Source: Planctomycetota bacterium
Lineage (GTDB): Bacteria; Planctomycetota; B15-G4; JADJEK01
Reading direction: 5' to 3'
Length of the DNA stretch: 64,000 bases
Assembly: GCA_044225365.1 (NCBI GenBank)
Contig: JBGAIQ010000005.1
Span: forward strand, 174,713 to 238,712
The notes under the pieces are model-generated. The model worked only from the letters and a program-made list of their open reading frames with translations, was not told where the DNA came from and searched no databases. Positions 1,003 to 64,000 of this stretch are shown in pieces. Numbering within the stretch: position 1 is the first letter of the stretch; every line of letters begins with the position of its first letter. The position numbers and the translations under genes are program-made.

Positions 1003-3693
<2,691 letters not shown>

Positions 3694-58792: not shown

Positions 58793-59709
58793 TCCGAAAG
58801 ATCGTGAAGAAGGCGCTGTCGATCGTCCTGCTGCTCGTGATCGTGTTCACGGGGGCCTTCTTCCTGATGCGCCTCGCGCCGGGTGGACCGTTCGATAGCG
58901 AACGCGCGCTCCCACCCGAGATCCTCAAGAACATCGCGGCCCGCTTCCGTCTCGACGATCCACTCGGCAAGCAATACGCCGATTATTTCGCCGACGTCTT
59001 CTTCCACTTCGATCTCCGCCCGTCATTCGCCTATCGCGACACTTCGGTCAACGCGATCATCGCGCAGACCTTTCCGCGCTCCGCCGCTCTCGGCTCCGCG
59101 GCGCTCTTGCTCGCAGTCCTGATCGGCGTTCCCGCCGGAATCCTGGCAGCGACGAAGGCGAGCAAGAAGAGTGGGTTCGCGCTTTCCGCTGCTTTTGCGC
59201 TGAGCCTGGCCTTTCCGAACTTCGTCGTCGCCACGGTCCTCGTCCTCGTGTTTGGATTCGCGCTCCCGTGGCTGCCCGTCGCTGGCTTCGACTCGATGCG
59301 CAACCTCATTCTCCCCGCTGCTGCGCTCGCTCTACCGCTCGCCGGATCGCTCGCGCGACTGACCCGAGCCGGTGTCCTCGATGTCCTGAAGAGTCCGTTC
59401 ATCCGCACGGCGCGGGCGAAGGGCCTGACGCCGAGAAAAGTGCTCGTGCGCCACGCGCTGCGCTCGAGCCTCATTCCCGTTCTGACATGGCTCGGCCCGG
59501 CTTCCGCGGCGGTGCTCACGGGATCCCTCGTCGTGGAGCGAATCTTCGCGATCCCAGGAATGGGATCGTTCTTCGTGACGAGCGTGATGAACCGCGACTA
59601 CCCGCTCGCCACCGGAGTCCTCCTGCTCTACTTCGCGCTCGTCGCCGTCCTGAACGCGGTGATCGATCTCTCGCTCGCCGTGCTCGATCCGAGGCTCGAG
59701 GCAGCATGA
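58789..59709 (+). CDS. oppB: oligopeptide ABC transporter permease
   Basis: LAPGGPF, FIRTARAKGL, HALR, VERIFAIPGMG, NRDYP, LDPR; GTGA overlap. Confidence 0.9.
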   Translation: MIRKIVKKALSIVLLLVIVFTGAFFLMRLAPGGPFDSERALPPEILKNIAARFRLDDPLGKQYADYFADVFFHFDLRPSFAYRDTSVNAIIAQTFPRSAALGSAALLLAVLIGVPAGILAATKASKKSGFALSAAFALSLAFPNFVVATVLVLVFGFALPWLPVAGFDSMRNLILPAAALALPLAGSLARLTRAGVLDVLKSPFIRTARAKGLTPRKVLVRHALRSSLIPVLTWLGPASAAVLTGSLVVERIFAIPGMGSFFVTSVMNRDYPLATGVLLLYFALVAVLNAVIDLSLAVLDPRLEAA

Positions 59710-60581
59710 GTTCCTCGAACGCTCGATCGACCCTCATGCGCCTCGGCCGCACGGGAAAGCTCGCGGTCGGCGTCCTCCTCGCACTCTTCATGCTCTCGCT
59801 CGTGGCGCCCCATCTCCCCATCGAGAGCGTCGGCAGCACCGATCTCACGCGACAGCTCGAAGCGCCATCGCGAGCGCATTGGTTCGGTACGGATCTGCTC
59901 GGTCGCGACGTGCTCGCCCGTACGCTCGCCGGAATGCGGTCGTCGTTCCTGATCGGACTGCTCGCGGCGTCGGTGTGCCTCGTCATCGGCGTCCTCGTCG
60001 GCGCGACCGCTGGTTTCTGCGGTAGGAAGATCGACCTCGTGTTGATGCGCGTCGTCGACGTGCTCTATGGCATCCCCTTCATCTGCCTCGTCATCTTCCT
60101 GCTCGCGGTCCTGCGCGATCACGAACCGATGCTGCGCGCCCACGGGATCACGCGCGAGACGGTGCTCTACGCCTGCGTCGGCGGCACGACGTGGCTTACG
60201 ATGGCGCGCCTCGTTCGCAACGAAGTGGCGAGGCTCAAGACGTTGCCCTACGTCGAAGCCGCACGGGCGATGGGAATGAGCGGCGGCGCCGTGCTCTTCA
60301 AGCACGTGCTGCCGAATGCGCTCGGCGTGATCGTGGTCGCGCTGTCGCTGTCGATCCCGTCGATCCTCCAATACGAGGCGTTCCTGTCGTTCCTCGGTCT
60401 CGGCATCGAGCCTCCCGGAGTCTCGCTCGGACTCCTCGCATCCGAAGGCGTCGAAGCGCTGTCCCCGGTCTTCGATGCCTGGTGGCTGATCGCATTCCCC
60501 GGCGGCACTCTCGCGATCCTACTCCTGGCGTTCAACCTGCTCGGAGACGGCCTCCGCGACGCCCTCGACCCACGCTCCTAG
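59706..60581 (+). CDS. oppC: oligopeptide ABC transporter permease
   Basis: HWFGTDLLGRD, YVEAARAMG, HVLPN, EAFLSFLGLG, FNLLGDGLRDALDPR. Confidence 0.92.
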   Translation: MSSSNARSTLMRLGRTGKLAVGVLLALFMLSLVAPHLPIESVGSTDLTRQLEAPSRAHWFGTDLLGRDVLARTLAGMRSSFLIGLLAASVCLVIGVLVGATAGFCGRKIDLVLMRVVDVLYGIPFICLVIFLLAVLRDHEPMLRAHGITRETVLYACVGGTTWLTMARLVRNEVARLKTLPYVEAARAMGMSGGAVLFKHVLPNALGVIVVALSLSIPSILQYEAFLSFLGLGIEPPGVSLGLLASEGVEALSPVFDAWWLIAFPGGTLAILLLAFNLLGDGLRDALDPRS

Positions 60582-60582
60582 C

Positions 60583-61716
60583 GGACCGCCGGGCACGCCT
60601 CCTCGGACCGCCGGGCTCTGCCCGGCATCTTCTTCGTCCGCCTGGCCTTTTCGGGAACGTACCACCATGGGTCGGACAGCGCGTCGGGCGCGCACGGGGA
60701 GCTCCGTTCGACTCCGCGCGCGGCAGACCGCGCATGCTGCGCGAACGGACTCCCCGATGCGCTTCTGTCCCTTCGAGGGGAAGGGTTGTAGGACCCACTT
60801 TGAAATGGAACGAGGCGCCTTGCCTGGAGTGCCGCGGACGGCACCCCAGCCAAGGCTTTCCCCACGTGTCTTCGCGACGAACCTCATGGGGTAGGTAGGA
60901 ACGCGGTCACCTTGCGCGCCCGTAGCACGGTCATCTTTGAATTCGGCCCTTTTAGCGGGGTCTACCCTTTCGTCGGCGTGCACGGAAACGCGTCGATATG
61001 GGTCGGACCGCCGGGCTCTGCCCGGCATCTTTGGACTTCGGGAACGTACCACCGCGGATAGGACAGCTCGTCGGGCGCGCTCGGGGAGCTCCGTTCGACT
61101 CCGCGCGCGGAGTACCGCGCATGCTGCGCGAACGGACTCCCCGATGCGCTTCTGTCCCTTCGAGGGGAAGGGTCATGGAGGCCCACTTTGAAATGGATCG
61201 AGGCGCCTTGCCTGGAGTGCCGCGGACGGCACCCCAGCCAAGGCTTTCCCCACGTGTCTTCGCGACGAACCTTGTGGGGTAGGTAGGAACGCGGTCACCT
61301 TGCGCGCCCGTAGCACAGCCAGCTTTGAATTCGGCCCTTTTAGCGGGGTCTACCCTTGCGTCGGATCGGACCGCCGGGCTCTGCCCGGCATCTTCGGGAA
61401 CGTGCCACCGTGGATACGACAGCACGTCGGGCGCGCCCGGGGAGATCCGTTCGACTTTGCGCGCGGAGGACCGCGCGTGCTGCGCGAACGGACTCCCCGA
61501 TGCGCTTATGTCGCTTCGAGGGGAAAGGTCATGGAGGCCCACTTTGAAATGGCCCGAGGCGCATCGGATGGCACCCCAGCCAAGGCTTTCCCCACGTGTT
61601 TTCGCGACCCCCACCCACGAACTGGGAGGGTAGGTAGGAACGCAGTCACCTTGCGCGCCGGTAGCACGGTGGCCTTTGACGTCGGCCCGGATACCGGGGG
61701 CTGTCCTTTCGTCAGC
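60583..61716. repeat. tandem array of three structured 350-400 bp non-coding units, each starting with the REP GGACCGCCGGGCTCTGCCCGGCATCT
   Basis: REP starts at 60605, 61005 and 61368 (half copy at 60583). Units share long near-identical blocks such as GCGAACGGACTCCCCGATGCGCTT, CCCACTTTGAAATGG and GGCACCCCAGCCAAGGCTTTCCCCACGTGT. Confidence 0.92.
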
Positions 61717-62004
61717 GAGAATGGGATCGCTCAGCGCCCCGTTCGAGGGGAACCGTTCGCTCGACCTTGCGGGAGGGCCGGCGCTTCGAGTACTCTCCCG
61801 CCCGAGCGGCGCCGTGAATCCATCGGTGAAGCGCTCGGTTGGCATTCATTCGACTATGAAGGGCCTTGCCACCGTCGAAAATCCACGCCCCAACGCTGGG
61901 TTGCCGCCCGAGTCCTCGACGAACTGCTGGAGATCGCCGCTTCGCCACCGTCGCGTAGAGATTTCGAACCCCACACTCACGAACCGAACATGAAGGACAC
62001 CTCC

Positions 62005-63783
62005 ATGGCCGATGCGTCCCGTCGCGATTTCCTGAAAACCGTGAGCGTTGGAGCCGCTGCAACCAGCCTCGGCACGAGCTTCCTCGGATGCAGCTCGACC
62101 GCCGTCAGCTCGAGCCAGGACAGCGTCCGTCCCGCGGCCGGTGGACCCTACAACATCCTCTTCATCCTCACCGATCAGGAACGCTACTTCCGGCCCGGCG
62201 AGTTGCCGTCCGACTATCGGTTGCCCGCGCACGAGCGTTTGATGCGCAACGGAGTCGTCTTCGACAACCACCGCATCAATTCGTGCGTCTGCACTCCGTC
62301 TCGCTCGGTTCTCTACACCGGGCGCCACATCCAGCAGACGAAGATGTTCGACAATACGAATTTCCCCTGGATCTCGAGTCTATCGCCCGAAGTCCGCACC
62401 GTCGGGCACATGTTGCGAGACGCGGGTTATTACACGGCGTACAAGGGAAAATGGCATCTCACGAAGGAATTCGAGACCGTCAACGAACTCGGCTCGCCGC
62501 ACAAGATCTTCACGCAGGAAATGGAAGCGTACGGCTTCTCCGACTACTTCGGCGTCGGTGACATCATCGCGCACACCCAGGGTGGCTACCTGCACGACGG
62601 CGTCATTTCCTCGATGGCCGTGAGCTGGCTCCGAGGGAAGGGCTCCAGTCTGACTGCGGAGGGCAAGCCTTGGTTCCTCGCGGTGAATCTCGTCAATCCA
62701 CACGACGTGATGTTCTACAATTCCGATCAGCCCGGCGAGGAAGTTCAGAGCCGCAACATCCTCGGGCATATCGAGCGTGCACCGAAGCATCCCCTCTACG
62801 ATACGCAGTGGAAATTCGACTTGCCTGCGAGCCACGGCGAAAGGCTCGACGCTCCCGGCAGGCCGCGCGCGCACGCCGAGTTCCTCGCGTCGCACGATGC
62901 GCTCGTGGGGAACATCGCGAACGAGGAGCGACGCTGGCGCAGTCGCCACAATTACTATCTCAATTGTTTGCGCGACGTCGATCGCAACATCACGACGTTA
63001 CTGGATGAACTCGATGCGCAAGGTCTCGCGTCGAAGACGATCATCGTGATGACCGCCGATCACGGCGACCTGGACGGCGCGCATCAACTCCATGCGAAGG
63101 GCGCGACTTCCTATCGCGAGCAGAACCAAGTCCCCTTCATCGTAGTGCATCCGGGTCGCAAGGGCGGCGTGCGCTGCCGCAGCGTGACGTCTCACCTCGA
63201 TGTCGCGCCGACCCTGCTCGGATTCACGGACATCGCGCCCGAGCGACGTGCCGCGATCACCAAGGGCCTGCCCGGCAAGGACGTCTCGCCGCTGCTCAGT
63301 TCGCCCGAGAACGCTCCGATCGGTGCAGCCCGCGATGGCTCGCTGTTCTGCTTCAACATGTTCGCTTACATCGACGGCGACTTGATGAGCAAGGCCGTAA
63401 CGCTCCTGCGCGAGCCCGACGGCAAGCAGAAGTTGAAGGAATCGAATCTCAAGCCCGACCTCTCGAAGCGAGGCGCCATCCGAAGCGTCTTCGACGGTCG
63501 ATATCAGTTCACTCGCTACTTCTCGCCCAAGCAACACAACCGACCCGACTCGTTGGAGTCTCTCCTCGCGCACAATGACGTCGAGCTCTTCGACCTCGAA
63601 TCCGACCCTCACGAAGTCGACAACCTCGCGAAGGACCCGAAGAAGCACGGCGACGTTCTGTTGGCGATGAACAGCAAGCTCAACAACTTGGTGGACACCG
63701 AGGTCGGGGAAGACGTCGGACAAATGCTGCCCGGCGGACCGGACGCGGGCTGGGTTCTGACACCGGCGGCTCGCGACCTCTGA
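62005..63783 (+). CDS. Tat-exported, probably lipid-anchored formylglycine-dependent sulfatase
   Basis: SRRDFLK Tat motif, FLG-C, NILFILTDQ, CTPSRSVLYTG, KGKWHL, ADHG. Confidence 0.92.
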   Translation: MADASRRDFLKTVSVGAAATSLGTSFLGCSSTAVSSSQDSVRPAAGGPYNILFILTDQERYFRPGELPSDYRLPAHERLMRNGVVFDNHRINSCVCTPSRSVLYTGRHIQQTKMFDNTNFPWISSLSPEVRTVGHMLRDAGYYTAYKGKWHLTKEFETVNELGSPHKIFTQEMEAYGFSDYFGVGDIIAHTQGGYLHDGVISSMAVSWLRGKGSSLTAEGKPWFLAVNLVNPHDVMFYNSDQPGEEVQSRNILGHIERAPKHPLYDTQWKFDLPASHGERLDAPGRPRAHAEFLASHDALVGNIANEERRWRSRHNYYLNCLRDVDRNITTLLDELDAQGLASKTIIVMTADHGDLDGAHQLHAKGATSYREQNQVPFIVVHPGRKGGVRCRSVTSHLDVAPTLLGFTDIAPERRAAITKGLPGKDVSPLLSSPENAPIGAARDGSLFCFNMFAYIDGDLMSKAVTLLREPDGKQKLKESNLKPDLSKRGAIRSVFDGRYQFTRYFSPKQHNRPDSLESLLAHNDVELFDLESDPHEVDNLAKDPKKHGDVLLAMNSKLNNLVDTEVGEDVGQMLPGGPDAGWVLTPAARDL

Positions 63784-63806: not shown

Positions 63807-63863
63807 GATGCCGGGCGGAGCCCGGCGGTCCGGCTTGACGGCTTCAAGACGGTGCCGGGCGGA
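63807..63863 (-). repeat. one full REP (63807-63831) and the right half of a second REP (63853-63863)
   Basis: Minus strand reads GGACCGCCGGGCTCCGCCCGGCATC; TCCGCCCGGCA abuts the intron 3' end. Confidence 0.8.
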
Positions 63864-64000
63864 ATCGGGTAGACCAGGGCGGCGTTCCGCCCCGGCCCCC
63901 CTCAGATCCGGACGTGCCGATTTCCAGCATCCGGCTCTTCGCGATCAGGAGCTCGCGCCGGGACGGTAGACCGAGTGGACAATCTCCGCGCGAGGCAATG
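63864..64000 (-). mobile_element. 3' end of a group II intron (domains V and VI)
   Basis: Minus strand: DV GAGCCGGATGCTGGAAATCGGCACGTCCGGATC (63937-63905, AGC triad) and DVI GGGGGCCGGGGCGG-AACG-CCGCCCTGGTCT-A-CCC-GAT with bulged A and AY terminus. Confidence 0.92.
63945..64000 (-). CDS. C-terminal tip of the intron-encoded reverse transcriptase/maturase (partial)
   Basis: ...LPRAEIVHSVYRPGASS* ends 7 nt before DV; resembles the LPxxxIVHS end of endonuclease-less intron proteins. Confidence 0.7.
   Translation of the reverse strand, partial: LPRAEIVHSVYRPGASS

Follow-up and report, generated by a model that had tools for sequence, protein, structure and literature searches.

A composite repeat headed by a repetitive extragenic palindrome, arrayed in a Planctomycetota genome and probably spread with the help of a RAYT

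What kind of element lies three times in a row between an ATP-binding cassette (ABC) transporter permease gene and a sulfatase gene with a twin-arginine translocation (TAT) signal in an uncultured member of the Planctomycetota? The array is found in a stretch of 64,000 nucleotides (contig JBGAIQ010000005.1 of assembly GCA_044225365.1, positions 174,713 to 238,712 of the forward strand), which is called the window here. Three head-to-tail units span positions 60583-61731 of the window. Each of them opens with a 22-nt repetitive extragenic palindrome (REP), GGACCGCCGGGCTCTGCCCGGC, which is present without any difference at 60605-60626, 61005-61026 and 61368-61389, so that the REP-to-REP distances are 400 and 363 bp. 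An earlier note on this DNA, made from its letters alone, had pointed out three direct units with these periods and identical REP heads, all of which are present in the sequence. It had proposed either a large unannotated non-coding RNA or a non-autonomous mobile element that accumulates at REPs. The second proposal fits: the unit is modular, dispersed and non-coding, has a REP at its head in every case and was found in this genome alone of those searched, and the genome encodes a REP-associated tyrosine transposase (RAYT) whose gene is flanked by the same REP. The array is thus best described as three copies of a genome-specific, non-coding composite repeat, which probably spreads as a REP-plus-cargo segment by means of that RAYT.

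The array is beyond chance, as the unit recurs about 19 times near full length. These 19 near-full copies were found by BLAST with unit 2 against its own genome (6.53 Mb in 103 contigs, 94% complete, with contigs labelled C1, C13, C76 and so on), and they lie at about ten further loci, often in tandem and on either strand. The hit depth per base divides the unit into four modules, which are given below in the unit positions of unit 2.

REP, unit positions 5-30, hit depth about 105-124
Module A, unit positions 33-77, hit depth about 34
Module H, with hairpins, unit positions 78-153, hit depth about 43
Module B, unit positions 154-363, hit depth about 22

Module H is about 76 nt long and module B 210 nt, in a whole unit of about 360 nt; a covariance model of the B core counts 23 copies in the genome. 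The order REP-A-H-B is kept at all mapped loci with the REP on the unit's own strand, and the arrays mostly close with a further REP. Length variation adjoins the REPs, as the earlier note had observed: the linker between REP and module A takes up 0-36 nt, and B has an optional tail of about 25 nt. The first 25 nt or so of module A are also present as a short tail after solo REPs. Between common outer arms, module H comes in alternative versions. Among the 18 aligned copies, 13 have H1 (GGGGAGCTCCGTTCG...), four have H2 or a version like it (GGGGGATCC...GGATCCCCC), and one has a third variant. Modules are reshuffled among subfamilies, with H1 or H2 joined to either B type, for example in the copies C85a and C85b.

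The copies average 84% identity (range 68-97%), and conservation along the unit is very uneven. For 18 of the 19 copies the closest relative is on another contig, and the same is true for 14 of the 15 copies in multi-copy arrays; pairs on the same contig are 87.0% identical (n=12) vs 84.5% for other pairs (n=159). Whole hairpins have been lost in places: H is gone in the second unit on C77, and one of the hairpins in B, hairpin d, is gone in C73a and half gone in unit 3 of the window. A lone, decayed B remnant with a degenerate REP is found at C14:2882-3030, and the idea of a gene-bearing master copy on C14 was rejected, because the locus consists of an array end and this remnant. Truncated units at C70:138408-138554 and C93:49250-49400 stop exactly at the 3' end of H and are followed at once by a REP, which would fit either REP insertion or REP-guided joining inside units. 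Taken as a whole, the copy pattern is that of a birth-and-death repeat family.

The REP is a high-copy element in its own right. The pattern GGASCGCCGGGC-N3-4-GCCCGGC occurs 239 times in the genome (114 forward, 125 reverse) vs 0 for the reversed-pattern control, and a looser regular expression finds 272 palindromes. There are two Y1-transposase matches in the genome. The match on C76, a contig other than that of the window, is an open reading frame (ORF) of 221 amino acids, which scores 85 bits on NCBIfam NF047646, an equivalog model for REP-associated tyrosine transposases (cut-off 80), and 27.5 bits on Pfam Y1_Tnp (cut-off 23). Compared with the E. coli enzyme TnpA-REP (4ER8, chain A) it gives an E-value of 1.6e-7, with HVH aligned to HMH and YIHENP to YIYINP; these residues of the C76 protein we take to be the catalytic HUH motif and tyrosine. 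The earlier note had suggested looking for a RAYT gene, among others, beside copies of the unit. The same REP, together with a second palindrome, lies in arrays on both sides of the C76 gene. Since the RAYT gene is flanked by the identical REP, the REP heads of the units belong to a true REP/RAYT system. When intervals between same-strand REPs are counted, 67 of 98 are 20-99 nt long, often with the second palindrome as spacer, and 11 form a separate mode at 340-419 nt. The units are therefore a distinct long-spacer class within a general habit of head-to-tail REP arrays. No TnpB is found in the genome (0 matches to PF07282), and a TnpB guide RNA as the cargo was rejected for that reason.

Further features of this REP system were seen along the way. 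The REP and the second palindrome (GCCACGCT-CCA or GGA-GCGTGGC) take turns in head-to-tail arrays of 75-76 bp and around the RAYT gene; examples are C76:106694-109939 (positions 1000-2150 of that piece), C22:6459-6800 and C7:45517-45715. The REP tail GGCGGTCC can pair with the next GGACCGCC, giving overlapping alternative hairpins. The second Y1_Tnp match, at C75:64686-65012 (30.4 bits), lies in an open frame of 568 amino acids, away from mapped REPs.

In the window, the array occupies the gap between the two genes named above. Its parts, all on the plus strand, are as follows.

59268-60581, plus: upstream gene, ABC-transporter inner-membrane permease (ORF; Pfam BPD_transp_1, 2.1e-26); its stop codon TAG ends at 60581, 2 nt before repeat DNA
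60583-60595, plus: half REP, 5' arm CGGACCGCCGGGC only, then 9 nt, then REP1 (from the sequence; hit depth rises here)
60605-60626, plus: REP1, GGACCGCCGGGCTCTGCCCGGC, head of unit 1
60650-60689, plus: unit 1, module A (linker)
60690-60765, plus: unit 1, hairpin module H, H1 type
60766-61003, plus: unit 1, module B with long tail; constrained core 60855-60941
61005-61026, plus: REP2, head of unit 2
61032-61076, plus: unit 2, module A
61077-61152, plus: unit 2, hairpin module H, H1 type
61153-61362, plus: unit 2, module B with short tail; constrained core 61243-61329
61368-61389, plus: REP3, head of unit 3
61392-61432, plus: unit 3, module A, with the CGACA variant
61433-61507, plus: unit 3, hairpin module H, H1 type
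61509-61731, plus: unit 3, module B; core 61585-61680; a 16-nt deletion in one hairpin and a 9-nt insertion; no closing REP
61975-63783, plus: downstream gene, sulfatase with TAT signal (Pfam Sulfatase, 2.7e-40); start codon not fixed, an ATG lies near 61990

Module-to-module distances are 387/388 and 351-356 bp. The window's units differ from one another by 9-19% in pairwise comparison and carry distinct indels, unit 3 being the most diverged, and because of this divergence Tandem Repeats Finder reports no repeat at the array. The earlier note had placed the array at 60583-61716. The left edge stands, while the right edge has to be moved: judged by genome-wide hit depth, the repeat reaches to about 61731, and unit 3 has no REP behind it. 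Between the permease stop codon and REP1, the half REP at 60583-60595 is followed by ACGCCTCCT (to 60604). The half REP may be the scar of an earlier event at this REP.

Module H1 is not restricted to this family. It is also present in a second repeat family of about 235 nt and about 18 copies, beside a REP variant (GGAGCGCCGGGC...), at C37:29200-29450 and C37:30990-31240, on C26, C35, C63 and C93, and at many contig ends. These copies often form head-to-head inverted pairs, and on C37 two of them stand as inverted repeats around a gene of about 1.5 kb. One copy, at C24:8440-8680, lies within the 3' part of a stop-to-stop frame of 566 amino acids, whose residues 498-519 match H1 in a blastx comparison; here either a repeat has inserted into the end of a gene or the frame is spurious.

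Does the unit encode a protein, or the remains of one? The unit is non-coding. Variability in module B is flat across codon positions (0.104/0.101/0.085), and of 32 deletions only 5 have a length divisible by three. The GGGT hairpin does carry the 1-nt indel (GGGTT..GACCC vs GGGTC..GGCCC) that the earlier note had read as breaking any frame. A blastx comparison of 18 copies with the genome's 10,005 coding-like ORFs gave 195 high-scoring segment pairs, of which 194 were the repeat DNA itself and one was marginal (E 0.002, in 1 of 18 copies). The units show no match to the RAYT protein (best E 0.39), and an ORF of 297 amino acids on the minus strand across units 2 and 3 belongs to no Pfam family. 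The majority-rule unit sequence has one open frame, minus frame 0. A decayed protein gene, such as a RAYT, had been named in the earlier note among the findings that would overturn its view, and it was rejected on codon positions, blastx, Pfam and the comparison with the RAYT.

Is it then a structured RNA? All the stems and variants listed in the earlier note were found in the sequence. The units hold GGGGAG(C)TCCGTTCG/CGAACGGACTCCCC and an inner stem GCGCGG/CCGCGC with the loops CAGA, AGTA and AGGA; the stem GCCTTG..GTGCCG/CGGCAC..CAAGGC has lost its 5' half in unit 3 by the 16-nt deletion; and the closing stem GGACA/TGTCC of units 1 and 2 becomes CGACA/TGTCG in unit 3. This last change is a real compensatory one, but it stands alone in the family. 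Over 18 copies the closing stem is intact in eight, compensated in one (unit 3 of the window) and broken in nine. The stems of the earlier note plus some added ones (71 pairs in 18 copies) were then compared with shuffles. In this count 92.0% of the cells are paired vs 89.4% in the shuffles; nine pairs are changed on both sides vs 4.9, a number reached by 7 of 500 shuffles; and the covariation score is 0.071 vs 0.047 (0 of 500 shuffles), where the copies are related, several of the cells come from the swap between H1 and H2, and related sequences can give such scores without structural constraint. Hairpin b does pair through changes (GGGTC/GGCCC to TGTTC/GGGCA or GGACA), as does the outer stem of hairpin d (GCCTTG/CAAGGC to GCCATG/CATGGC and GCATTG/CAATGC). 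The long-range stem CGGGCGCGC/GCGCGCCCG and the stems GTGCCG/CGGCAC and CCCCA/TGGGG show pair-breaking changes only.

Other tests of an RNA gave a similar picture. G-U-type cells (34) are as frequent as A-C-type cells (33), so neither strand is marked as transcribed, and the covariation term of RNAalifold is +0.31. Folding is better than in shuffles for either strand (z -3.4 and -4.0), which is expected of palindrome-rich DNA. A search of Rfam 15 at E<=10 gave chance-level matches only (12-18 bits vs gathering scores of 46-100), and a scan of the array for promoters and terminators gave no promoter-like site and one terminator-like site (REP1) vs 1.4 expected. Covariation in the stems is thus not convincing by RNAalifold, stem counts or shuffles. 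We read the hairpins as partly kept at the level of DNA or of single strands rather than as a demonstrated RNA fold. The large ncRNA of the earlier note finds no backing here, given the lack of an Rfam match and of a homolog outside this genome in the searches made, the RNAalifold term, the strand-neutral wobble and the loss of hairpins in several copies, and the unit is likely to be selfish DNA rather than a conserved RNA gene.

Outside this genome the unit is absent from 40 relatives of the same family and order when searched by BLAST, and the B core is absent from 100 relatives in 86 genera when searched with a covariance model. Motif scans of genome-contig and metagenome-contig collections gave no match, although this genome's own records may be excluded there. 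The collections of plasmids and phages hold no match to the unit, and a phage or plasmid origin was rejected on these grounds. The REP is equally restricted, with 239 copies here vs one in total across the 40 relatives. In Logan, contigs of four runs from four studies carry the repeat modules at high summed depth, and both outer edges of the array are crossed, on the left by X4 (60462-60612) and on the right by X3 and X5 (from 61579 or 61628 into unique flank). Close strains are therefore present in other samples. The short-read unitigs of these four runs break within the array, and only the outer edges are crossed.

How does such a unit compare with known systems? It has much in common with the REPs, bacterial interspersed mosaic elements (BIMEs) and RAYT of E. 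coli, the so-called REPtron: a short, GC-rich extragenic palindrome in about 240 copies, mostly downstream of genes and often clustered, and one RAYT gene, of the Y1 HUH family, with copies of that REP on either side. In BIMEs, however, the REPs alternate and the linkers are tens of bases long, whereas the three REPs in the window are on the same strand, 400 and 363 bp apart, and separated by a conserved, structured cargo of 330 nt with its own modules and copy numbers. Passages of PMC3733652 report that the spacers of REP dimers are mostly 20-100 bp long and that head-to-tail dimers exist, in line with the earlier note's remark that the linkers of BIMEs and REPINs (REP doublets forming hairpins) are much shorter than those seen here. 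They also describe large REP clusters that are reiterated in tandem together with flanking DNA, and REPs downstream of coding regions. The REPs of the super-families tagged by GTAG or CGTC are similar to ours in their head-to-tail order, in the growth of tandem clusters, and in their position between unidirectional or convergent genes and downstream of coding regions; the defining GTAG or CGTC tag is not seen on this REP, and the segment between REPs is here a dispersed family of 23 copies with a constrained core and not a local flank. REPINs (Bertels and Rainey, PMC3116915) are likewise non-autonomous, extragenic and genome-specific, and are thought to be copied by a RAYT in trans. A REPIN, however, consists of two inverted REPs with a short spacer, while the unit has one REP, in direct repeat, and a long cargo.

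Two other systems are alike in architecture. In Neisserial intergenic mosaic elements (NIMEs), RS modules of 50-150 bp are flanked by dRS3 repeats. They too are intergenic arrays of longer modules punctuated by a short repeat that serves as a landing site for mobile elements, as the REP does here for a group II intron. NIMEs differ from the unit in having modules of this size, and they are not known to be linked to a RAYT; the likeness drawn here is one of architecture. The non-autonomous, palindrome-associated elements of the IS200/IS605 type carry same-strand hairpins at their two ends, lack terminal inverted repeats and depend on a Y1 HUH enzyme supplied in trans, all of which resembles the unit; here, in contrast, there is no TnpB in the genome, the enzyme is a RAYT and not an IS200 TnpA, and neighbouring units share hairpins.

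From this last likeness a mechanism can be outlined. The segment between two same-strand REPs would resemble an IS200/IS605-type element with its left and right hairpins. The RAYT would cut single-stranded DNA at a fixed place beside each REP and so release a REP-plus-cargo segment, which would join beside another REP to give REP-unit-REP, and repeated insertion at one place would lead to tandem arrays that share REPs. The E. coli TnpA-REP has cutting and rejoining activity in vitro. Recombination between REPs would be an alternative route to the same pattern.

A number of points weigh against spread by the RAYT. All of these mobilisation steps are ones that we infer. In the known products of REP/RAYT systems (REPINs, BIMEs) the REPs are inverted and lie tens of bases apart, according to passages of PMC3733652. 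A pair of filled and empty sites was not found, because the relatives are too distant for such a comparison; none of 11 family members has an ortholog of the sulfatase at E<=1e-60. To our knowledge, a cargo of 330 nt between direct REPs has no described precedent, although the literature search was not aimed at proving its absence. The pairing of the local hairpins (92% of cells) lies above shuffles, and module B holds a run of 29 columns (CTTTCCCCACGTGTCTTCGCGACGAACC) with at most one departing copy (shuffle maximum 22; 0 of 5000 shuffles); the variance of windowed variability is 258 vs 90 in shuffles. Both count against spread by the RAYT, since the RAYT model needs no long conserved cargo.

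The position of the arrays raises a similar difficulty. At 11 of 11 scorable array ends the REP comes first, in sense, no more than 90 nt from the stop codon of a coding-like ORF, where the ORFs come from a crude filter on G+C content at third codon positions (GC3) and not from a gene finder. The scorable junctions are those of C40, C13, C73, C77, C84 (left and right), C85 (left and right), C49, C93 and C18 (right). Ends left unscored are the left ones of C18 and C70, with 966 and 617 nt to the nearest called ORF end, and those of C1 and C13 (right), which are contig ends. Since the REP comes first on the gene's strand at both sides, units between convergent genes face inward. At C85 and C84 the two inward-facing units are of different subfamilies, so the mirror layout is not an inverted duplication. 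One exception was seen, on C70, where an incomplete unit on the minus strand points towards the 5' side of a gene on the plus strand. Of 75 generic REPs no more than 60 nt from a stop codon, 49 are in sense. The sense-after-stop pattern would fit a role at the transcript level at least as well as spread by the RAYT. The constrained B core and the strict orientation are more than neutral debris would show, and together they suggest that the cargo carries a cis-acting site, for spread or for tolerance in 3' untranslated regions (3' UTRs).

Such a role has been considered in its own right. The unit could be a functional RNA module of the 3' UTR that is co-transcribed with the upstream gene, its REP and cargo hairpins serving as a stabiliser of the 3' end, a barrier to decay or a processed small RNA, and whose many copies are due to selection for this role. 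The orientation of the array ends, mirrored between convergent genes and more strongly biased than the 49:26 of generic REPs, would agree with this, as would the core in B, the two-sided changes in hairpins b and d, and the folding of both strands; passages of PMC3733652 describe REPs downstream of genes as plausibly transcribed RNA elements. Yet a selected RNA is at odds with the absence of any homolog in the relatives or contig collections searched and of an Rfam family, with wobble that favours neither strand, with the RNAalifold term and the stems that are only broken, with copies that do without whole hairpins, and with terminator- and promoter-like signals no higher than in shuffles. We regard this explanation as doubtful, though the orientation rule and the core in B keep it in play. 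A composite of the two ideas, in which a RAYT-dependent transposon made of a REP and a structured cargo of 330 nt inserts head-first and always in sense beside REPs behind stop codons and its core acts as a portable 3'-UTR module, is a speculative and unlikely refinement. The repeats might also have arisen passively, by unequal crossing-over and gene conversion between REPs and units, with no transposase and with the unit as flanking DNA that was caught between REPs and amplified. The shuffling of modules between subfamilies and the slightly greater likeness of pairs on the same contig are what such exchange would leave behind, but recombination alone does not seed some 11 separate intergenic loci with the REP head right behind a stop codon, and nearly all copies have their closest relative on another contig; this origin is distinctly improbable.

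The remaining explanations carry very little weight. IS110-family elements are known to target REPs, and a group II intron does home into the REPs of this genome, which is why the unit could be seen as a gene-less derivative of an IS110/IS1111-type element with a bridge RNA as cargo, or of the resident intron. The units, however, lie between intact REPs and not inside split ones, and such a derivation is very improbable. An IS110 bridge RNA was rejected: the IS110-family gene is single-copy, with no REP-like palindrome in the 4.5 kb examined and only chance matches of 11-15 nt to the units. A group II intron derivative was rejected as well, since Rfam gave no intron match across 60300-62100 at E<=10 and BLAST showed no likeness between the unit and the intron region on C77. 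About as remote is the thought that the array is an artefact of a metagenome-assembled genome or a decayed protein gene. It is true that the assembly has 103 contigs, many ending in these repeats, that short-read unitigs break in the array, and that one minus frame of the majority-rule unit is open. But the units are too far apart (9-19%, with distinct indels) to be collapsed duplicates, the same architecture is present at about ten loci, contigs of other runs cross both edges, and there is neither codon periodicity nor a protein or Pfam match, which makes an assembly artefact unlikely.

The introns deserve a description of their own. At the end of the window a REP on the minus strand (63810-63831) lies beside domain V/VI of a group II intron at 63864-63939, also minus (Rfam RF00029, 47.7 bits), and window and contig both end within this intron. 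On C77 a group II intron interrupts the array's final REP behind the 5' arm (GGACCGCCGGGC|GTGCG...; piece C77:11000-16500, about 1360-3400), so this intron uses the REP as a landing site. The C77 intron matches Rfam D1-D4 (1.1e-30), has its domain V at 3324-3399 of the piece, and contains a maturase (GIIM) match at C77:14018-14233. Both introns are elements separate from the units.

The importance of these results is limited by the fact that they concern one uncultured lineage, with a mobilisation that we infer only and an RNA-gene reading that is unsupported. Four results are new here: the link to a RAYT, the strict orientation of the scorable array ends in sense behind stop codons, the core under constraint in module B, and the count of changes stem by stem. 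The prevailing view is that REP/RAYT systems copy no more than short doublets of hairpins. If the explanation by RAYT-driven spread is true, these systems could move cargo beyond bare hairpin doublets, and a REP-headed family with a cargo of 330 nt would widen their carrying range. Concrete hints of a cis-acting role come from the strict orientation and from the conserved core, and the family would lend itself well to asking whether RAYTs treat a segment bounded by two hairpins as IS200-type transposases do.

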